IMG/VR virus record: IMGVR_UViG_3300027969_000040 | DNA length: 64,000 nucleotides | Source of the DNA: a virus | Taxonomy: Duplodnaviria; Caudoviricetes | Direction: 5' to 3' (one strand) | Shown here: in pieces, positions 13,097 through 45,263 of the stretch | Layout: every line of letters starts with the position of its first letter | Numbering within the stretch: the stretch's first letter is position 1 | Notes under the pieces: generated by a model | Databases searched by the model: none | What the model was told of the DNA's origin: nothing | Seen by the model: the letters and a program-made list of their open reading frames with translations, nothing else | Translations under genes and position numbers: made by a program

Positions 13097-13246
13097 TTAC
13101 CCAATGAGATCGTTAATACAAAAATTCTCTACTGCACCTAAAACCAAGTCAATTGGCACTTGAAGTTCTTGAGCAATAGCATGAGTACTAAAGCCAGCTT
13201 CGTATAGCTCTTGTATTTCGTAATAGATTTCTTTCATCTTGCTCAT
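13097..13246 (-). CDS. Small helix-turn-helix protein (49 aa, absent from the ORF track)
   Basis: MSKMKEIYYEIQELYEAGFSTHAIAQELQVPIDLV...; ATGA overlap; fills the gap exactly. Confidence 0.65.
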   Translation of the reverse strand: MSKMKEIYYEIQELYEAGFSTHAIAQELQVPIDLVLGAVENFCINDLIG

Positions 13247-13711: not shown

Positions 13712-13984
13712 TTATTCTCCAGTGTAGAATTCGTACATCTTAACCTGTGGATCCAATGCTGTCAACTGCACAGCCGCTTCACGCAGAGACTTGTAACGAC
13801 GTTGAATTTCTGCACGGGGTAGTTCGCCGTCGCAGCTCAAGTTCTCGGGGCTTAGGTCTGCGTCTAGTGCATCAGCGATGCGTTGGCGACCTTTAGTACT
13901 TTGGAATTCAAACTGCTCGCCTTTGAAGATGGCGTTCCAACGATTCTTCTGATCTACATAGGCTGTGAGTGCGGAAACTTTCAT
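13712..13984 (-). CDS. Hypothetical early protein
   Basis: First gene after a consensus promoter; GGAG RBS. Confidence 0.7.
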   Translation of the reverse strand: MKVSALTAYVDQKNRWNAIFKGEQFEFQSTKGRQRIADALDADLSPENLSCDGELPRAEIQRRYKSLREAAVQLTALDPQVKMYEFYTGE

Positions 13985-14011
13985 CGTGTGCTCCAGTGTG
14001 TGTAAGTGTAT

Positions 14012-14040
14012 ATTATAACGTATTTCGAGCTAGCTGTCAA
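14012..14040 (-). promoter_or_regulatory. Sigma70-type early promoter
   Basis: TTGACA-17-TATAAT. Confidence 0.85.
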
Positions 14041-14045
14041 CCGTT

Positions 14046-14378
14046 TTATGCTCGCATAATTCTGTAAGAAATGTCGCCATCTTTGTTAACAGATTTAGAA
14101 ATTCCTTGCAGTTCGTAGTCTGCTTCCAGCAGAGCAAGATTACGTACATCGCGCACTTGAGGTTCTTCGATGTGAACCGTGATCCACTTTTTACGGAAGT
14201 TGATGTGAATAGCGCGGCTGTGATAGCAAAGTTCGAGTCCTAATTTAACTCGTTCTGCCTTTAGCTTCTGCGCATCAGAATAGGTGGTGCTGGCTGCATA
14301 GCTTTTGATAGCTGCATCGCGGGCGGCGCCCCAAGCATAAAAACCTGCACGTTTAGTTTCAGTTTCACGGACTTGCAT
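14046..14378 (-). CDS. Hypothetical early protein
   Basis: 110 aa; AAGGAG RBS; directly after a promoter. Confidence 0.7.
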   Translation of the reverse strand: MQVRETETKRAGFYAWGAARDAAIKSYAASTTYSDAQKLKAERVKLGLELCYHSRAIHINFRKKWITVHIEEPQVRDVRNLALLEADYELQGISKSVNKDGDISYRIMRA

Positions 14379-14407
14379 AACGACTCCTTTTTGCTGTTTA
14401 AGTATGT

Positions 14408-14436
14408 ATTATACAGCGGTTTTGCCCGTTTGTCAA
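14408..14436 (-). promoter_or_regulatory. Sigma70-type early promoter
   Basis: TTGACA-17-TATAAT. Confidence 0.85.
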
Positions 14437-14466
14437 CCAAAAAATTGCAGAAAATTGCAGGAAAAA

Positions 14467-14484
14467 TGTGGTATTTTTGCCACA
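14467..14484. promoter_or_regulatory. Putative operator palindrome
   Basis: TGTGGT-N6-GCCACA. Confidence 0.5.
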
Positions 14485-14497
14485 CTTTTCCTTCTTT

Positions 14498-14662
14498 TTA
14501 CTGGGTTTTGACGCTTTGTTGATAGCGATATTCTCGCCGTAACCACCACTTATATTTGCCAAAATACTCCTGTAGGGTTAGACGAGGTTGCCCCCAACCA
14601 TCGTGCTCGTCGCAGTTTTCACGCCACAAATCTTGCAACCAGGTACTAAAGGGCTTAGTCAT
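14498..14662 (-). CDS. Hypothetical protein (54 aa)
   Basis: Start moved to MTKPF; AAGGA RBS. Confidence 0.6.
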   Translation of the reverse strand: MTKPFSTWLQDLWRENCDEHDGWGQPRLTLQEYFGKYKWWLRREYRYQQSVKTQ

Positions 14663-14663
14663 A

Positions 14664-14882
14664 TTAATCCTTCTTAGTGATTGGGGTGGCTTTGAACAGG
14701 ACGCCAAATAGGAACTGGATACCCCAAGCCTGTAGCCATGTGACTTCTTTAACACCGTCGATAGCACCCACCAAGCATCCATTCCACAGCATCATTACTG
14801 GCCAACTTAGGACAAAGGATAGGAATACCAGTGTAGCGATCCCTGCCACGATTGCACCTAGTGCCATGAGTCCTTCTTTCAT
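14664..14882 (-). CDS. Small membrane protein
   Basis: 72 aa with two hydrophobic stretches. Confidence 0.65.
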   Translation of the reverse strand: MKEGLMALGAIVAGIATLVFLSFVLSWPVMMLWNGCLVGAIDGVKEVTWLQAWGIQFLFGVLFKATPITKKD

Positions 14883-14883
14883 A

Positions 14884-15108
14884 TTATGCTCCTAGTCTAA
14901 ATTGTTTCAACGTATCTTTTGCTTCATCGACTCCTGCAATTTCATCAGCAAAAGCCATTACCATTAAATCAATCAGAGTTCGGCACTCGCGCTGATCTTT
15001 TTTAGGCAAGGTAGCAATAAATGCCTCAACTGCATCATGCGCTTCGAGCTCCCACATGATATCACATAAGGTACGCTGTTTAGCAGTTAGTCCTGTTAGT
15101 GTGATCAT
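14884..15108 (-). CDS. Hypothetical protein
   Basis: 74 aa; tiles the operon. Confidence 0.6.
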   Translation of the reverse strand: MITLTGLTAKQRTLCDIMWELEAHDAVEAFIATLPKKDQRECRTLIDLMVMAFADEIAGVDEAKDTLKQFRLGA

Positions 15109-15257
15109 TTATTTTTCTTGTTCCTGGATTCCTGAACTGCCAACTTGCCCGAATACAAACCATTCTTAGCAGTATGAATCAGACCAAGATACTTTCCATC
15201 CTTGTCATAGTTATATGTGATAATGCCGCCGCTGCTGGAAACTTTAGTTGATTTCAT
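15105..15257 (-). CDS. Hypothetical protein (50 aa, absent from the ORF track)
   Basis: MKSTKVSSSGGIITY...; AAGGA RBS; ATGA overlap. Confidence 0.55.
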   Translation of the reverse strand: MKSTKVSSSGGIITYNYDKDGKYLGLIHTAKNGLYSGKLAVQESRNKKNK

Positions 15258-15259
15258 TT

Positions 15260-15367
15260 TTAATCCTTTACGTTACGTTTAACAGAAAAACCTTCAGACT
15301 TGTATGCGTCAACTTCGTCGGCTTCGCAAGTGAACAAAAACAAATCACCATCCCACACTTGAAACAT
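15260..15367 (-). CDS. Small hypothetical protein (35 aa, absent from the ORF track)
   Basis: MFQVWDGDLFLFTCEADEV...; strong AAGGAG RBS. Confidence 0.55.
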   Translation of the reverse strand: MFQVWDGDLFLFTCEADEVDAYKSEGFSVKRNVKD

Positions 15368-15437
15368 AATCAACTCCTTTTAAAATTTATCGGAAGGGAC
15401 TTATTGACATTGCCCTTACGCACACTGCGGGGTTAGC

Positions 15438-16460
15438 TTATGCCGCTGGCTTCATACATGTAGTCTGTGCTAGTGACTTCCAACGCAACGGAAAGCTCTT
15501 ACGCAAGTCGGCAATTTTAGTTGCCATACGCAAGCTCATTTCGCGCAGTTTCATCTTGTTCTCGTCCATGAAGTCAACGATCTCATCTTGAGCGCATTGG
15601 TCGAACTCGTATCCGTCAAACAAATCACCAGTGCGAGCAATCTGCTTAATACGCAACACTTTGTCACGCATGGTATCTAGTGTCAGATCCAAGTAATGGC
15701 AACGTGACTGCAAAGCATCCAAGTGATCCCGCAGTTTCTGCGATTTCATCTTGTCAAACTTCAAATTGGTAATAAAGATTACGCTACCTTTAAACTCGAA
15801 TTGATCTGGGATGCCCTCACGACGCAAAGTGCTGGACTCTGCCAACCAGCTAATCTTACGTTTCTTGCCAGAGTCGAGAGCACCTTTCAACAAGTTCAAG
15901 GCAACGTCATCGAGCAGAATGCTATCGCAATCGTCAAATACAACCATGCAATTGGCATCACTATACTTGTAAAGAGTTTGATACAGTCCGATAGGAGTAG
16001 CAGAACCTTTAACGACTTCTGCACGAAGACGCTTGCCGCTGATCTGATCTAGTAGACATGCTTTTTCAACTTCTTGCTCGACGCTATAGCTCTTGCCGAC
16101 ACCGGGCGGGCCCGATACAATCATAGCACGGATGTCGCCGCTGATAGCAGCCTTAGTCATATCTGTCAGAATTTCAAAACGCTCTGCAATTTCTTCTATG
16201 CGTTCTTCGTCGGTCTTGGTGCTAACAACCTCTGTCTCAACTTGAGCAAGTTCAGTGCCAGAGACAAATTCGTAGTCAGTGGGTCCGTTAACTTTGACAC
16301 GAATTTCTTCAGGGAAACCAGGAAAGTTTCCATCATTCTTGACAGTAACATAGCCACCTTTAGGTGTACTACGATATTGCTCAACTAGTGTAAACGACAT
16401 GCCGTTTACTTTCTTAGCACGATAGGTTCCGGACGTGATACGAATAGTTGCTGTTGACAT
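15438..16460 (-). CDS. AAA+ P-loop ATPase
   Basis: Walker A GPPGVGKS, Walker B VVFDDCD, sensor FITN, arginine-finger-like SRC. Confidence 0.85.
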   Translation of the reverse strand: MSTATIRITSGTYRAKKVNGMSFTLVEQYRSTPKGGYVTVKNDGNFPGFPEEIRVKVNGPTDYEFVSGTELAQVETEVVSTKTDEERIEEIAERFEILTDMTKAAISGDIRAMIVSGPPGVGKSYSVEQEVEKACLLDQISGKRLRAEVVKGSATPIGLYQTLYKYSDANCMVVFDDCDSILLDDVALNLLKGALDSGKKRKISWLAESSTLRREGIPDQFEFKGSVIFITNLKFDKMKSQKLRDHLDALQSRCHYLDLTLDTMRDKVLRIKQIARTGDLFDGYEFDQCAQDEIVDFMDENKMKLREMSLRMATKIADLRKSFPLRWKSLAQTTCMKPAA

Positions 16461-16491
16461 TAAAACTCCTGTTTTGTGTGTGTAAGTAAGT

Positions 16492-16520
16492 ATTATACAT
16501 AGAAACGACTAACTTGTCAA
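16492..16520 (-). promoter_or_regulatory. Sigma70-type early promoter
   Basis: TTGACA-17-TATAAT. Confidence 0.85.
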
Positions 16521-16529
16521 CCGTTTTTT

Positions 16530-16547
16530 TGTTGTATAAAAACCACA
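16530..16547. promoter_or_regulatory. Putative operator palindrome
   Basis: TGTTGT-N6-ACCACA, 9 bp upstream of the -35. Confidence 0.55.
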
Positions 16548-16590
16548 TTTTCTAGCAGTATTACAACGAAGTCCTGCTGCTAAAACACTA

Positions 16591-16619
16591 ATTATAGTGT
16601 CAATTTGGGATGTTGTCAA
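16591..16619 (-). promoter_or_regulatory. Sigma70-type early promoter, tandem to 16492-16520
   Basis: TTGACA-17-TATAAT. Confidence 0.8.
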
Positions 16620-16627
16620 CCGTTTTT

Positions 16628-16645
16628 TGTTGTTTTTTTACAACA
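16628..16645. promoter_or_regulatory. Putative operator palindrome
   Basis: TGTTGT-N6-ACAACA, 8 bp upstream of the -35. Confidence 0.6.
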
Positions 16646-16651
16646 AAATGC

Positions 16652-16855
16652 CTATTTCCAGTCGTCCTCGTTCCTAAAATCCATATGTGGCCATATGTTA
16701 TTATCAAAGATTTGGGCCATTTTGTCCCATAATGCTTTACGTTCCGATCCCGTCATTCCTGCTACAAAGGCAGCATCGTCGGGATGTCGATCTAGTTCGT
16801 AGTCGTGCCTGTAAGTCATGCACATATTTCGAATAATGTGTTCGCGTATAATCAT
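16652..16855 (-). CDS. Hypothetical protein
   Basis: Start moved to MIIREH; ATGA overlap. Confidence 0.6.
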   Translation of the reverse strand: MIIREHIIRNMCMTYRHDYELDRHPDDAAFVAGMTGSERKALWDKMAQIFDNNIWPHMDFRNEDDWK

Positions 16856-17103
16856 ACTATCTCCTCTACCACTCCTAGTATTTCTGCTAATATAAGTAAC
16901 CACCCGCAAACGGCTAGTGATCCCATAATAAGTGCAGAGCCTGCGGCAATACGCACCGCACTCTTTACAACACTAACATAGAAATGACCTTGACTGGTAT
17001 CCTTGGGCTGAATATTAATTAATGGTGTAGCATGCGGACAGCGCCCTTGATTAAATTCACAATTGGGATTAATTTCTTGATTGCAAGTAAAACATTTTGT
17101 CAT
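16852..17103 (-). CDS. Small protein with Cys cluster and C-terminal membrane segment
   Basis: CFTC...C...C followed by a hydrophobic C-terminus. Confidence 0.6.
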   Translation of the reverse strand: MTKCFTCNQEINPNCEFNQGRCPHATPLINIQPKDTSQGHFYVSVVKSAVRIAAGSALIMGSLAVCGWLLILAEILGVVEEIV

Positions 17104-17114
17104 AGTAATTGTAT

Positions 17115-17444
17115 TTAAGAAGCAGGAGCAGATGCTGTATGCTTGCATGCCCCTCTAAAACTAAACCCAGGACATGAACAGGCCCATTTACCATCATTAC
17201 GGGTTAGAGTATATACTGCGCCTTTGCTGCCGTTTACTTGTATTGAGTCTTCTGTTTTAACTGTTTTCAATACAGTGAAACTACGGCCTCGGCGATCAAA
17301 GGCAATTGGTTTTTTGAATGTAATTTTATCATTGGTTCCTACTGGAATGTAGGAAACCATTTTACTCATAGAGTCATCAACGTAATAAACGTGATTAGGA
17401 ATAGACGGATCTTTCCAGGCTGTTGTTTCTTGAATAACTTTCAT
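17115..17444 (-). CDS. SWIM zinc-finger protein
   Basis: CSCPGFSFRGACKH. Confidence 0.8.
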   Translation of the reverse strand: MKVIQETTAWKDPSIPNHVYYVDDSMSKMVSYIPVGTNDKITFKKPIAFDRRGRSFTVLKTVKTEDSIQVNGSKGAVYTLTRNDGKWACSCPGFSFRGACKHTASAPAS

Positions 17445-17472
17445 ACAAAGTCCAAAGTTTATTACAGCCCGT

Positions 17473-17501
17473 ATTTTACTAGATTATTGATATGTTGTCA
17501 A
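17473..17501 (-). promoter_or_regulatory. Sigma70-type early promoter
   Basis: TTGACA-17-TAAAAT. Confidence 0.75.
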
Positions 17502-17510
17502 CTAGTATTT

Positions 17511-17528
17511 TGTTGTAAATTTACAACA
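17511..17528. promoter_or_regulatory. Perfect 18-bp palindrome, putative operator
   Basis: TGTTGTAAATTTACAACA, 9 bp upstream of the -35. Confidence 0.6.
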
Positions 17529-17530
17529 TT

Positions 17531-18667
17531 TTATTTTGGAAAGACTTTCCCGTTATAACTTAAATCAATTCGGTTTGGATTGGTTTCATACCAGCCCTTG
17601 CCATTATAAATGTTTAATACAGATTGGAAGTATTCCTCGTACATAACTGCAACTTTATCTAAACTAAAATTGTCCACTGCCCAATTACGGCAAGCCTCGG
17701 TGCTAATATTATCAATATTTTTAGCAGCCCAGACAAATTGTTCAAATGTTCTGCAACGATATCCAGTTACGCCATGTAAGTTATTTTCAGCAAAACTACC
17801 CCAATCGGTTGATATAGTAGGAGTGCCGCTCATTAACATTTCAATCTGTACTCCACCAAATGGTTCAATATACATACTAGGAACAAATGCAGCCTTGGCA
17901 CGGCTCATGAGTTTTCTTCTTGCTTCGATATCTGCATAACCTACAAAATCTACATGGTCTGGAATACTTGTAAACCCCATTTCATATAAATTACCTTGTC
18001 CTGCGATTTTTAAACGGGCACCAATCGCTTCAGTTGCTTGTATAGCAATATTAACACCTTTGCCATCATAGACCCTGCCAACGTATAAAAAGTAATCTTC
18101 TTTTTCTTCGGGCTTATAATCAAAATCTGCAACATCAAAATAATTAGGAATAACAACATCATACCAATCCTGTTTACAATTTCCTACTGCTGGTAAACCA
18201 TAGTATGCATGGTAAATTGCATAGCTTTCAAAAATCTTAAATCTAGCCCAATGTCCGCCGGCATACCCTATGCCTGGTTCTACTGTTATAAGATCTGGAT
18301 GTGCATCGCAAATTGGTCTGACTCCGGATCCCCAGAAAGGTAATATGAAGTCGTTTCTTTGTTTTCTTTTTCCTACTTCTATAATAGCATTTTTATAGAA
18401 TGTTTGATAGGCATGATCATTCACATCAAATTTAAAAAAGTTCTTTCGCCAATCATAATTTCCATATGCTATTTCTAAGTCCTGGTTGGTGAGTACCGTT
18501 ACATGTTCGTCACAAACTAAATCGCTATCTTCGTGACCGTAATGTATAATGGTATGCCCGCGGGCCTTCATCATTTTACCAAATTTAACTACTTTTTGTG
18601 TATATGCGCAGGCATTATACTCTTTGCTTGTAACCGTGTGCGGTAAACCTAATATGTGAAATCTCAT
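17531..18667 (-). CDS. Glycosyltransferase, GT-B fold (GT4-like)
   Basis: [10 protein letters not shown] and [20 protein letters not shown] resemble the GT4 ExF(G)xxxxE motif. Confidence 0.85.
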
Positions 18668-31671: not shown

Positions 31672-33606
31672 TTATTTTGACTTTTTAACGTCTGTGTCGG
31701 CTTTTTTAGCCAACCCCATTGCAGCAGCGTATCCAGGAATTTTCATCATTCTTTTTAATCTTTCTGGATCTTTTGCAGTTTCAGTACCTGCGGCAGCCAG
31801 TCTTGCCTGACGAGCTACAAATTCTTTTTTAGATTCCGTATTGGCTTCATCTAATATTGCGCTTTCGCGGGCGATCTTCCGAATCTCCTTGCCTGTTGTA
31901 TCAGCCACCCATTCGTAATCATCAAGTACACTCTTAACATCATAGCTATCAATGCCTAGTTGTTCTGCAATTTCATCATCTGAAAGACCTTGATTGTACA
32001 ACTTAATTATCTTTTGTTTAATGTTTGATACGCCTTCCGCCACACCTTGCTGCGGTCCTGCTTTTTTGTCAGCGGCCGCAGACGTCATTGGCTCATCTGT
32101 ATTACCGTTTTTATTCAAATCTAAAAAGTCTGGCTTAGCCTTTTTGCTTACAACTTTTAGTTCATTTAATTGTGCCATTAGTCTGCGTTCGATTTCGGCT
32201 AATTTTTGTTGTTCTGCTAGGTTTCCAATTGCAACTGGTGCACCAACTGTTTGACTATGTTTTTTTCTATGCATATCGTTACCCGAATTGAATTGCACTT
32301 CTGCACTTTGTGTAATTGGATATGGTTCGTTAGCATATTCGTCTAGTTCAATATCAACAACTTCTGGTTCCATTTCATGACTAGCACCACCATCAAGTAA
32401 GCCAGAAAGTTTTAATATTTGAGCTAGTTCTTCTGCTGCTTGCCCTTGTGCAGATACAGTCAGCGACTTACTTCCGGTTTTGGTATCCATTGAACTGTTA
32501 ATGTTCATACCAGTTTCTTCTGGCTGAGCCATCATTGCTTGGTCGTAGCATTCTTCTAGATTTTTGCTTTCGTTGGCGGCATGATGACGTTTCCATGCAG
32601 TAGAATACAATGTCTTTAATCCTTTTTCTTCGCCATATTGTTTAATAAAGCGTTCCTTATTTGCTTTAACCCAGCCCTCTTGTCCTGGCGCTGTTACTTC
32701 ATCAACTTGTTCTTCTGCCATTGCTTGATCAAATGATTCATTTAATCCGCGTGGACCAGCTGGGCCTTTGGGCATAGTAACTGGCTTTAGTCCGTTAAAA
32801 TTGTTATTACCAATTCCGGCAAGTTTTTGTATCTGTCCTATTTCTCCAGAACGAACTTGATCTAACCCTAATGGGAAGTTACCTCCTCTTGCATTACTCT
32901 TTCTCTTAATAGCAGGGATCATTACTGGATTAACAACACTACCACTTTCTTCAACTTCTTCTTCTTTCTCGCCGCCTTCGTTGGTCTTGGGAAAATTTGG
33001 ATTGTCCCATGCCTTCTTTTCTTGTCTATTTTTATACCAATCGGCTGCCTTTGTAATACCTTTACCAATTGTAGCGCCAATTGCTGCTCCACCTGCCGCT
33101 GCAAGAGTGCCCGCCATTGGATGTGATGCTAACTGATTTAGTGTATCAATATCAAATTCATCTAATTCTTTTTTTGCTGGTTCGTTTTGAGGTGCAAAAC
33201 GATTATCTTGATATTTTTTTAAAGCAGCACCTGTATGTATAGCTTCTTCTACATGATCGCCGTGGACTGGGCAATCCGTATCTTCTTTATCATCGGTGCA
33301 AGTACATTCGTCGGCTTCTTCTAATTTAGACTTTTTCTTCTTTTTCTTTTTGCCGTCTTCGTCTTGATCGCTATCATCGTCGGATTTATGTCCATCTTCG
33401 GAATCTTGATTACCATAGCTCGTACCTTTAACTCGGGTAACACCACTGGATTTTTCGTCTTTATCTTTGTAAGAACTACTAAACGGATCGTCGCGCTCTT
33501 CTTTTTTCTTGGCTACTTTATCTGCAATATCGTCGCCTTTGCCCTCACCTACAGCGGATGCCGATTCTATACTATCAATTTTTGCTATCATTTTTGCGAA
33601 ATTCAT
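31672..33606 (-). CDS. Putative internal head protein, mosaic of short modules
   Basis: 644 aa, highly charged, many [LVA]xE sites; HTH and EF-hand-like loop. Confidence 0.55.
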   Translation of the reverse strand: MNFAKMIAKIDSIESASAVGEGKGDDIADKVAKKKEERDDPFSSSYKDKDEKSSGVTRVKGTSYGNQDSEDGHKSDDDSDQDEDGKKKKKKKSKLEEADECTCTDDKEDTDCPVHGDHVEEAIHTGAALKKYQDNRFAPQNEPAKKELDEFDIDTLNQLASHPMAGTLAAAGGAAIGATIGKGITKAADWYKNRQEKKAWDNPNFPKTNEGGEKEEEVEESGSVVNPVMIPAIKRKSNARGGNFPLGLDQVRSGEIGQIQKLAGIGNNNFNGLKPVTMPKGPAGPRGLNESFDQAMAEEQVDEVTAPGQEGWVKANKERFIKQYGEEKGLKTLYSTAWKRHHAANESKNLEECYDQAMMAQPEETGMNINSSMDTKTGSKSLTVSAQGQAAEELAQILKLSGLLDGGASHEMEPEVVDIELDEYANEPYPITQSAEVQFNSGNDMHRKKHSQTVGAPVAIGNLAEQQKLAEIERRLMAQLNELKVVSKKAKPDFLDLNKNGNTDEPMTSAAADKKAGPQQGVAEGVSNIKQKIIKLYNQGLSDDEIAEQLGIDSYDVKSVLDDYEWVADTTGKEIRKIARESAILDEANTESKKEFVARQARLAAAGTETAKDPERLKRMMKIPGYAAAMGLAKKADTDVKKSK

Positions 33607-45234: not shown

Positions 45235-45263
45235 ATTATAGCAGGTTCGGACCCACTTGTCAA
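45235..45263 (-). promoter_or_regulatory. Sigma70-type early promoter
   Basis: TTGACA-17-TATAAT. Confidence 0.85.

Follow-up and report, generated by a model that had tools for sequence, protein, structure and literature searches.

This locus raises the question of whether an 18-bp inverted repeat (hereafter, the box) that stands before a part of the strong early promoters of an uncultured T4-like jumbo phage from a lake is a regulatory site and, if so, of what kind. The analyzed stretch of 64,000 nucleotides (64 kb; the window) contains four copies, and the genes and promoters around them are on the minus strand. The relevant features are listed below, with the boxes in promoter orientation.

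Box Copies and Promoters in the Window

17511..17528, minus strand: dyad box 1, the perfect TGTTGT-AAATTT-ACAACA, 9 bp upstream of the -35 hexamer of P17501; the stop of a glycosyltransferase gene lies 2 bp before it
17473..17501, minus strand: promoter P17501, TTGACA-N17-TAAAAT, driving a 109-aa SWIM zinc-finger protein and two small genes
17115-17444: SWIM zinc-finger protein, 109 aa, following box promoter P17501
16628..16645, minus strand: dyad box 2, TGTTGT-AAAAAA-ACAACA, 8 bp upstream of the -35 hexamer of P16619
16591..16619, minus strand: promoter P16619, TTGACA-N17-TATAAT, the more upstream of two tandem promoters 99 bp apart
16530..16547, minus strand: dyad box 3, TGTGGT-TTTTAT-ACAACA, 9 bp upstream of the -35 hexamer of P16520
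16492..16520, minus strand: promoter P16520, TTGACA-N17-TATAAT, driving the AAA ATPase and the small genes behind it
15438-16460, minus strand: AAA ATPase, 340 aa, in the operon driven from P16520
14467..14484, minus strand: box-like copy 4, TGTGGC-AAAAAT-ACCACA, 30 bp upstream of the -35 hexamer of P14436
14459..14492, minus strand: hairpin containing copy 4, with a 13-bp stem and a T-rich tail behind it, probably the intrinsic terminator that closes the AAA ATPase operon
14408..14436, minus strand: promoter P14436, TTGACA-N17-TATAAT, driving a 110-aa gene
14012..14040, minus strand: P14040, a box-less consensus promoter used for comparison, leading the operon that ends in the 49-aa HTH gene
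about 45235-45263: box-less consensus promoter, also for comparison
13097..13246, minus strand: 49-aa three-helix HTH protein, a weak candidate for the box reader

In the scan of the window, the pattern TGTKGTNNNNNNRCMACA (TGTKGT-N6-RCMACA) was matched solely at 14467-14484, 16530-16547, 16628-16645, and 17511-17528, exactly where the earlier note had placed it. These four sites amount to seven strand matches compared with 0.15 expected, and seven matches were reached in 0 of 100 shuffles. Each of the four copies precedes a promoter of the same orientation, and the rest of the 64 kb has none; the motif scan, suggested earlier as a check on random occurrence, thus gives a non-random, promoter-tied distribution. 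Every box promoter has TTGACA and a 17-bp spacer: the -35 hexamers are at 14431-14436, 16515-16520, 16614-16619, and 17496-17501, each followed by this spacer and TATAAT or TAAAAT, and the gaps of 30, 9, 8, and 9 bp between box and -35 hexamer that had been reported were reproduced exactly from these positions. The promoters at 14012 and 45235 had been described as free of the box, and both are indeed consensus promoters without it. With core promoters that fit the consensus as they are, there is no obvious need for an activator, an observation that counts against the explanation preferred below.

Consensus and Discreteness of the Box

In promoter orientation the consensus of the box is TGTTGY-AAAAAW-ACAACA. 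Its end is typically 7-10 bp upstream of the -35 hexamer and its center falls near -54 (-53.5, assuming a start 7 nt after the -10 hexamer); other copies lie 17-60 bp from the -35 hexamer. The box is either there or not: it is carried by 10-45% of strong promoters, and arm mismatches among 745 unique strong promoters are distributed bimodally, 0-2 or 5-10. Nearly invariant are G2, G5, C14, and C17 and the entire TGTTG/CAACA arms, about ten positions outside the A/T tract. As an element, the box falls short of a true palindrome: its center is a directional A-tract (58-82% A at positions 7-11 of the non-template strand), and the arm farther from the promoter is less strictly kept than the nearer one.

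The A-rich center, the 9 bp between the box and the -35 hexamer, which are also A-rich (e.g., AAAAACGG), and the fixed orientation of the element relative to the promoter are compatible with an UP element or intrinsically curved DNA, that is, with lineage-specific docking of the alpha C-terminal domain (alpha-CTD) that needs no extra factor and in which the dyad is incidental. UP-like elements are carried by T4-type early promoters, and the box shares with the UP elements found at strong bacterial promoters and at T4 early promoters the location between -40 and -60, the non-template A-tract, and the dependence on orientation. Estrem et al. 1998 reportedly gave AAAWWTW as the consensus of the distal UP subsite, and AAAAATA fits its first seven positions. 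Set beside an A/T tract like AAAWWTWTTTTNNNAAANNN, the box center and the adjoining N9 are similarly A-rich and directional, whereas the G/C-containing arms and the bimodal presence are atypical: UP elements vary continuously and have no conserved G/C dyad arms, while the box is present or absent rather than graded. Moreover, the near-invariant G2, G5, C14, and C17 and the arms are needless for recognition by the alpha-CTD, the copies with a T-rich center (box 3 and several in the relative G001) still keep their arms, and the copies at 17-60 bp are beyond the UP zone. The box seems more specific than a plain UP element would be, and this explanation is in our opinion unlikely. The directional A-tract and the A-rich 9 bp nevertheless have the look of an UP element, which speaks against the explanation that we consider best.

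The earlier note argued that the copy 30 bp from its -35 hexamer lies on the same helical face as the others. This argument is weakened: the copy on which it relies forms the apex of a likely terminator hairpin, and its ortholog in the close relative keeps this hairpin but not the box consensus. For distant copies, four whole genomes gave a suggestive signal of helical phasing (p 0.003-0.02, n = 18), which was absent from a larger set (p 0.07-0.36, n = 62); not being reproducible between the two data sets, it was rejected as a general feature.

Distribution of the Box in Phages and Bacteria

The arrangement box-N8/9-TTGACA is found in at least 120 IMG/VR contigs, about 90% of them with a -10 box at 17 bp. 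One gene-sharing network accounts for 114 of 122 loci, and the mid-size contigs are 16-33% fragments of jumbo genomes; the carriers are nearly all fragments of one freshwater jumbo myovirus clade related to Pseudomonas phage PA5oct. Four near-complete relatives contain 14, 8, 2, and 13 boxes, compared with 0-1 for a reversed-pattern control. In 32 of these 37 cases a promoter lies no more than 60 bp downstream, and solely in one of the two orientations, and in G001 (345 kb) all 14 exact boxes (14/14) precede minus-strand promoters. The first genes behind box promoters belong to diverse families, with no regulator gene dominant. A near-identity search of 50,697 phage records gave no match, and an RNA library yielded only short pieces from relatives.

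The nearest cultured relative is PA5oct (TerL 53%). It was scanned for the box, which is absent, and carries instead a palindrome of its own, TGCAAAT-N7-ATTTGCA (18 sites against 1 for the control); the box is therefore lineage-specific. Like the box, the palindrome of PA5oct precedes host-type promoters of the early region, by about 10 bp, but its sequence and length are unrelated, the adjacent promoters are weaker, and neither box occurs in the other lineage. This palindrome goes unmentioned in the omics paper on PA5oct (PMC7318152).

That PA5oct, with a different host, has a different box would also fit a site for a borrowed host global regulator or nucleoid protein, which would be at work within the first minute of infection and tie early expression to host physiology. 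Early promoters must fire ahead of any phage protein, and those with the box are purely of the host sigma70 type; in addition, TyrR boxes share the TGT-N12-ACA spacing. However, the box together with a promoter is nearly absent from bacteria, with seven matches in 185,579 species genomes (596 Gb) and no host taxon enriched. Four of the seven represent one orthologous Chloroflexi locus before a 70-aa HTH gene beside ftsZ, and the remaining ones are a Clostridium BlaI-like gene and two phage-like MAG contigs; a clue to the host from these genomes was rejected, as the seven matches contain no host signal. To our knowledge, no regulator motif fits both the half-site and the spacing: those of CRP, FNR, Fis, LexA, DnaA, Zur, and TyrR differ, and the 434 and P22 operators likewise depart from the box in spacing or half-site. 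We thus regard a host regulator, too, as improbable.

Conservation of Sequence and Base Pairing

In a relative with 87% identity (L121), box 1 is kept at 18 of 18 positions, compared with only 10 of 17 in the spacer of P17501. Box 3 is identical (18/18), and the ortholog of box 2, TGTTGC-TAAAAA-ACAACA, retains 16 of 18 positions and stays inside the family consensus, a pattern that suggests purifying selection on the boxes. At copy 4, the ortholog TGTAGC-AAAAAA-GCCACA has kept the hairpin and lost the box consensus. This copy is the apex of a hairpin with a 13-bp stem and a T-rich tail (14459-14492; -18.4 kcal/mol, z -5.8), and therefore looks like a terminator. Thus one of the four copies in the window is better explained as a terminator, which again weighs against the preferred explanation.

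Substitutions in the two variable arm positions are one-sided: at 4:15 there are 26 pair-breaking changes against 3 compensated ones and at 6:13 there are 41 broken, 4 wobble, and 4 compensated, giving together 67 pair-breaking and 7 compensated changes. Complementarity, moreover, stops at the edge of the 18-bp box. Boxes 1 and 2 can fold into hairpins of -6 and -7.6 kcal/mol, box 3 forms no stable hairpin, and none of these three is followed by a sense-direction U-tract, so that the hairpin at 14459-14492 is the only one with the form of an intrinsic terminator. Since the sequence of the box is conserved and its base pairing is not, the box is not a hairpin signal; selection for a hairpin was ruled out by the pair counts and by complementarity that does not extend beyond the box. 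Where canonical terminators are present in the relatives, they sit just upstream of the box, which therefore belongs to the promoter module.

These observations bear on the resemblance to PeSLs, the promoter-early stem-loop cassettes of T4-type phages (Arbiol et al. 2010, PMC2839356; Comeau et al. 2014, PMC4122927). Both are repeated units in which an inverted repeat accompanies a strong early promoter of the sigma70 type; they stand between small orphan genes of T4-like phages, apparently at borders of modules that differ between relatives, and some cassettes have a terminator-plus-promoter logic. The box could then be the stem-loop of a terminator-promoter cassette, serving as an attenuator, a stabilizer of RNA 3' ends, or a recombination linker for module shuffling, and owe its constant sequence to gene conversion among cassettes instead of to a reader protein. 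Copy 4 inside its strong terminator-like hairpin, the weak hairpins of boxes 1 and 2, and the homogenized promoter spacers within some relatives agree with this explanation. The same is true of the homology to a close relative, which is interrupted some 15 bp upstream of copy 4, and of promoter-to-promoter joins in metagenome contigs from 14414 to 16511 (three runs) and from 14017 to 16613 (one). However, these joints are seen at 85% likeness and may just reflect the gene orders of other relatives, and the break adjoining the 14467 copy is the only one, the other three boxes being homologous on both flanks. The stem-loops of PeSLs are proven terminators, stable and for the most part G/C-rich, and vary in both sequence and position, whereas the box is A/T-rich, pairs weakly or not at all, has a clade-wide fixed sequence, position, and orientation, and lies apart from true terminators; a stable stem-loop terminator is lacking at three of the four copies, 14459-14492 being the exception. 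Pairing is not maintained, separate GC-rich terminators are located upstream of the box in relatives, and flanks and spacers diverge around a fixed box, the opposite of what recent copying predicts. A PeSL-type stem-loop is, in our estimate, quite unlikely.

The box is a real, discrete, and oriented element, conserved as sequence rather than as structure and restricted to one clade.

Relation to Ogr-Type Sites and Candidate Readers

The late promoters of phage P2 contain TGT-N12-ACA sites read by the zinc-finger activator Ogr (PMC3931495). In the P2 record the activator sites are centered 55-58 bp upstream of starts, with left halves TGTTGT at pV and pO/pP. All four copies in the window and the clade consensus fit TGT-N12-ACA, as do the Ogr/Delta/B sites of P2-like phages and P4, the predicted center of the box near -54 is close to the -55 to -58 of the P2 record, and both elements mark a subset of phage promoters served by the host polymerase. 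On the other hand, Ogr-dependent promoters are late and have no -35 box, whereas box promoters are early with a perfect -35 hexamer, and the present phage, unlike the phages with Ogr systems, is a jumbo myovirus of the T4 kind whose late promoters are apparently of the gp55 type. Ralstonia phage phiRSA1 has TGTTGT-N13-ACAACA, its arms being 13 bp apart instead of 6, and TGTTGT/ACAACA occurs also in phiRSY1; P2 and P4 were scanned for near-perfect TGTTGT-N6-ACAACA, and none was found. Of the known systems, the Ogr-type activators of P2, with TGT-N12-ACA sites at about -55 and contact with the alpha-CTD, offer the nearest counterpart of the box.

The Ogr family itself was rejected as the reader on searches of five related records and of the window. 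Ogr_Delta (PF04606) had no match at E <= 1 in five related records (G001-G005), two of them at least 99% complete, and the Ogr cysteine motif CX2CX22CX4C did not turn up in the window among small ORFs of the minus strand (260 aa at most); scans for cysteine motifs detected only a membrane-anchored zinc ribbon at 16852-17148 in the window and two unrelated zinc-ribbon ORFs in G001. An Ogr-like site without an Ogr gene suggests either convergence on a favored alpha-CTD geometry or a very divergent reader. The SWIM protein (17115-17444), which follows a box promoter here and in G002, was also rejected, as it is absent from G004 (13 boxes, 86% complete).

Among the candidates at 13097, 9732, and 31672 named in the earlier note, the 49-aa HTH protein (13097-13246) received some weak support and the other two gained none. 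A box lies within 1.5 kb upstream of 47% of mini-HTH genes compared with 25% of background ORFs (n = 15, a weak difference), and the 49-aa protein may tentatively be considered as the reader. A look-alike of its HTH module is part of a putative head-packaged polyprotein (31672-33606); a search for this polyprotein module in the relatives did not find it. One could imagine that the module is freed by the prohead protease, injected with the DNA, and pre-loaded on the boxes at infection, in which case a virion-delivered transcription factor would pick a subset of host-polymerase early promoters, but we consider this highly improbable.

Proposed Role of the Box

On balance, we consider it moderately likely that the box is a cis-regulatory protein-binding site in a promoter cassette common to this clade of uncultured freshwater jumbo myoviruses, with a presumably dimeric reader. 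A dimeric sequence-specific protein would read both TGTTG/CAACA half-sites across the narrow A-tract and modulate the subset (10-45%) of otherwise consensus early promoters of the host RNA polymerase. The site near -54 would place it in the zone of the alpha C-terminal domains and of class-I-type activators; because of this position, boosting or retiming via the alpha-CTD is favored over occlusion. The reader may be a host protein, a virion-delivered protein, or the product of a box-less immediate-early promoter, and we lean towards one specific to the phage lineage. The cassettes of terminator, box, and promoter also resemble PeSL units and, as a side effect, probably act as recombination linkers. 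Of the earlier proposal that a dimeric factor controls a subset of early operons, the marking of a subset, including the tandem pair before the AAA ATPase, stands. No binding protein was identified and no Ogr-type gene was found in the records searched, both of which weigh against this explanation; we therefore infer that a protein binds the box and controls these promoters, that it is a dimer, in which direction it acts, and where it comes from.

We know of no mechanism that sorts the many host-type early promoters of T4-like jumbo phages without MotA/AsiA into classes. The box, found at some consensus promoters only, offers a discrete clade-wide handle on such sorting: it looks like the docking site of a predicted DNA-binding protein that tunes some early promoters, and it predicts two classes of them together with a reader protein. 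This type of control is ordinary and familiar while the sequence is new, so the payoff is moderate; being a portable 18-bp element, the box is suited to reporters although the phage is uncultured.

Most promoters of AAA ATPase orthologs in the relatives are box-less, which is at odds with the best explanation: a forward box at 7-9 bp was found at only about 12 of 62. Tandem promoter pairs occur again before AAA ATPase orthologs in other contigs.

Distribution of the Box and Its Promoters

The degenerate pattern TGTKGT-N6-RCMACA matches the 64-kb window only at 14467, 16530, 16628 and 17511, in full agreement with the four positions reported in the earlier note. The motif scan proposed there counted 7 strand matches where shuffles predict 0.15, and no shuffle attained 7; the motif is non-random in the window. 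Genes and promoters of the box region are carried by the minus strand, and the box promoters are perfect or near-perfect versions of TTGACA-N17-TATAAT. The distances of 30, 9, 8 and 9 bp between box and -35 hexamer were reproduced.

-35 hexamers of the box promoters in the window
14431-14436, minus strand, -35 hexamer of P14436; gap to the box copy at 14467, 30 bp
16515-16520, minus strand, -35 hexamer of P16520; gap to the box copy at 16530, 9 bp
16614-16619, minus strand, -35 hexamer of P16619; gap to the box copy at 16628, 8 bp
17496-17501, minus strand, -35 hexamer of P17501; gap to the box copy at 17511, 9 bp

Consensus promoters at 14040, 42447 and 45263 are without a box in the window pattern scan; the first and the third are the promoters that the earlier note listed at 14012 and 45235 as lacking the motif. 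Upstream of the AAA ATPase operon stands a pair of consensus promoters (16492-16619), separated by about 90-100 bp that contain no ORF, and this tandem layout recurs before the AAA ATPase orthologues of distant relatives (loci L173, L176, L184 and L203). In the window promoters and the related loci, the region from +1 to +15 is CA-rich and conserved clade-wide (TATAAT-AnACAyWTAsACAs); it may act as a conserved leader, such as an enhancer of translation or a site of processing.

The box is real and reaches well beyond the window. No close match to the box region was found among 50,697 deposited phage genomes; at least 120 IMG/VR loci match a query of TTGACA with the box 8-9 bp upstream. Among the matches listed, about nine-tenths have a TATAAT-like hexamer 17 bp past the -35 box, and 114 of 122 loci are joined in a single gene-sharing network that includes the window; most of the unconnected loci are without a -10 box and look like chance matches. 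The mid-size contigs represent 16-33% of genomes of about 350 kb. The closest relative in culture is PA5oct, a jumbo phage of Pseudomonas, whose large terminase shares 53% identity with the one here. Public sequencing runs that contain the DNA come from 11 studies of lake and freshwater metagenomes.

The exact boxes number 14, 8, 2 and 13 in four long relatives, where the reversed pattern used as control occurs 0-1 times; under a strict pattern the strong promoters number 39, 38, 22 and 28, so that the box marks roughly 10-45% of strong promoters. For 32 of the 37 sites in these relatives a promoter follows within 60 bp, and in a single orientation, half of the 32 being at 6-10 bp. All 14 exact boxes of the 345-kb genome G001 are upstream of gene-strand promoters; the one-mismatch look-alikes with non-A/T centres that are strewn over its coding DNA are noise. 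Within each of the related records G001, G002 and G003 the 17-bp spacers hardly differ from one promoter to the next (both G002 and G003 have, for instance, TTGACAATAAATsnnTTTGGGTATATAAT), and the spacers of the window's own promoters are unrelated. This suggests that these three genomes either have homogenised their promoter cassettes or contain a further element that is recognised.

Constraint on the Box and Comparison with Known Elements

The logo, built from 195 distinct sites in promoter orientation, reads T-G-T-T-G-Y, five A (58-82% each), W, A-C-A-A-C-A. Since its centre is directional, the box is a pseudo-palindrome that always faces the promoter in the same way. Of the two arms, the promoter-distal one varies more, TGTTGC and TGTGGC being frequent, and complementarity ends exactly at the 18-bp limits. 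With a 9-bp gap and an assumed start 7 nt past the -10 hexamer, the box lies at about -62 to -45, centred at -53.5. We lean, with some reserve, towards reading the box as a predicted control site to which a protein binds, within the alpha-CTD zone of some of the early promoters; it is a new version of an already known kind of promoter control.

When the best 18-mer 7-11 bp upstream was scored for the 745 unique strong promoters present across all the DNA retrieved, the distribution of arm mismatches was bimodal, with 129 promoters at 0-2 and the remainder at 5-10, which makes the box a discrete element and not a matter of graded composition. A factor-free UP-like element is an alternative that we regard as improbable. 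Arm changes in the box-bearing promoters are one-sided and pair-destroying: at position 4:15, 26 pairs are broken versus 3 compensated, and at position 6:13, 41 are broken, 4 wobble and 4 compensated. On folding, boxes 1 (17511) and 2 (16628) give -6.0 and -7.6 kcal/mol, box 3 (16530) gives no hairpin, and no sense-direction U-tract follows any of the three. In the close relative, which is 87-88% identical here, boxes 1 and 3 are unchanged and box 2 differs at two consensus-permitted positions only; the P17501 spacer keeps 10 of its 17 bases. The constraint acts on the sequence of the box, not on its pairing. G/C-rich terminators with T-tails often stand directly upstream of the box in the relatives, in the order terminator, box, promoter, and the box is part of the promoter module.

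In T4-type phages, PeSL cassettes consist of a stem-loop and a strong early promoter; they lie between orphan genes, stop transcription and bring about the shuffling of modules (PMC2839356, PMC4122927). The box cassettes occur in the same setting, and hints of promoter-to-promoter junctions in metagenome contigs also speak for a hairpin or linker of the PeSL type. The stem-loops of PeSLs, however, are proven terminators, stable, rich in G/C and variable in sequence, and the box is the opposite on every count; we consider this explanation quite unlikely. The junctions join 14414 to 16511 (contigs from three runs) and 14017 to 16613 (one contig), but the contigs were matched at 85% likeness and thus may represent gene orders of other relatives; if real, they would be variants without the intervening 2.1-2.6 kb. 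In runs X2, X4 and X18 (window 13900-17700) the junctions combine the -10 side of one promoter with the -35 side of another, with a different spacer.

The site of the activators Ogr, Delta and B is a closer functional analogue of the box than PeSL. Ogr itself reportedly needs a contact site on the alpha C-terminus (Wood et al. 1997, cited in PMC1874639). In the P2 record, the annotated activator sites are centred 55-58 bp upstream of mapped starts, and their left halves include cTGTTGTg and aTGTTGTc. The P2 late promoters have TGT-N12-ACA in common and require the zinc-finger protein Ogr (PMC3931495), and Ralstonia P2-like phages have TGTTGT-N13-ACAACA (PMC5694545), which we found three times in phiRSA1. 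Outer spacing and half-site are the same in the Ogr site and the box, and the position, with the start assumed above, would be about the same. Two features nevertheless separate the box from the Ogr system: its promoters have perfect -35 boxes, and no cognate protein was found, neither a PF04606 protein in five records of relatives, of which two are at least 99% complete, nor an Ogr-type cysteine motif in the window. Near-perfect copies of the box are absent from P2 and P4. Given the shared geometry, the box may work like an Ogr site, but given the perfect -35 boxes and the lack of a PF04606 protein in those records, it is not a member of the Ogr system.

The copy at 14467 is the apex of a hairpin with a 13-bp stem (14459-14492; -18.4 kcal/mol, z -5.8); a T-rich tail comes after it, and the site is classed as terminator-like in the sense direction. 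The close relative has TGTAGC, off consensus, as the distal arm of this copy, with a new C-G pair lengthening the stem, and homology stops about 15 bp upstream of the copy. In our reading the main role of this copy is to terminate the AAA ATPase operon, whether or not it is read as a box as well. A comparable box with a T-run lies 21 bp from a -35 box in another contig. The gap between the hairpin and the -35 box of P14436 is occupied by two exact tandem copies of CTGCAATTTT (14441-14460, minus strand), the sole exact copies in the window; the TGCAAT in this repeat resembles a half-site of the PA5oct box TGCAAAT-N7-ATTTGCA, which may be a relic or chance.

The earlier note placed the distant copy on the same helical face as the others. 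In favour of this claim, boxes more than 12 bp from the -35 box are periodic in four whole genomes (n = 18; p 0.003 for 10.0 bp, p 0.019 for 10.5 bp), with a phase near that of the 9-bp position. However, periodicity is absent in a larger, more redundant set of 62 sites (p 0.07-0.36), and several boxes at 20-29 bp from the -35 box, before AAA ATPase orthologues, are coding, within a small conserved ORF. Therefore same-face placement of the distant boxes is possible but not established.

Candidate Recognising Proteins

A scan for box plus promoter that covered 185,579 prokaryote species, with one genome each, returned seven matches and no enriched host taxon. Four of the seven represent a single orthologous Chloroflexi locus, upstream of a small HTH gene beside ftsZ, one precedes a Clostridium BlaI-type gene, and two are phage-like MAG contigs. 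The lack of an enriched taxon argues against a variant of the protein-site reading in which the box serves a borrowed host factor, although a host protein whose native sites differ from the box would be compatible with this result. In Ardenticatenales/Promineifilaceae (Chloroflexi), the gene directly upstream of ftsZ encodes a 70-aa excisionase-type HTH protein (L141 701-1035; also L138, L142 and L144), and its promoter is flanked by several TGTTGY/RCAACA words, including in the spacer and leader; these look like an autoregulated operator before a cell-division gene.

The TGTTGT box is absent from PA5oct, which has about 18 copies of TGCAAAT-N7-ATTTGCA (1 in the control) as the core of a 21-27-bp palindrome. 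The palindrome lies mostly in the early region (10-43 kb of its record W01; e.g., L284 1490-1535), about 10 bp before weak host-type promoters; the published PA5oct analysis gives -35 and -10 motifs only and does not mention it (PMC7318152). Different boxes in the same place in related phages fit factor-site pairs that would co-evolve within phage lineages. Different hosts too would account for the different box of PA5oct. We think a borrowed host factor improbable.

For a phage-encoded reader of the box, the genes after box promoters are diverse. The first gene past P17501 encodes a 109-aa SWIM zinc-finger protein, which follows a box promoter in G002 too and was not found in G004, a genome with 13 boxes. 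The 644-aa putative head polyprotein (31672-33606; DUF6115) has weak HTH matches at residues 530-555, and this HTH-like stretch was not found in relatives. The 49-aa mini-HTH protein (13097-13246), proposed in the earlier note, belongs to a large family of 45-80-aa phage proteins (926 matches at E<=0.001). Its predicted structure is a three-helix bundle (pLDDT 87); the top structural neighbours, every one a DNA-binding HTH domain, have weak E-values. Homologues occur in G001, G002 and G004, in each case about 1 kb past a box promoter; none was found in PA5oct. Its proximity to the box is, however, mildly above background, a box being present within 1.5 kb upstream of 47% of the mini-HTH genes (15 distinct members) versus 25% for the background, and it is a weak candidate. 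Many members of the family end in SP(F/Y)xT(I/V)NS or SPYYGA (alignment A2); a further small ORF in G004 finishes with the same conserved tail, which may be a docking peptide that these proteins share.
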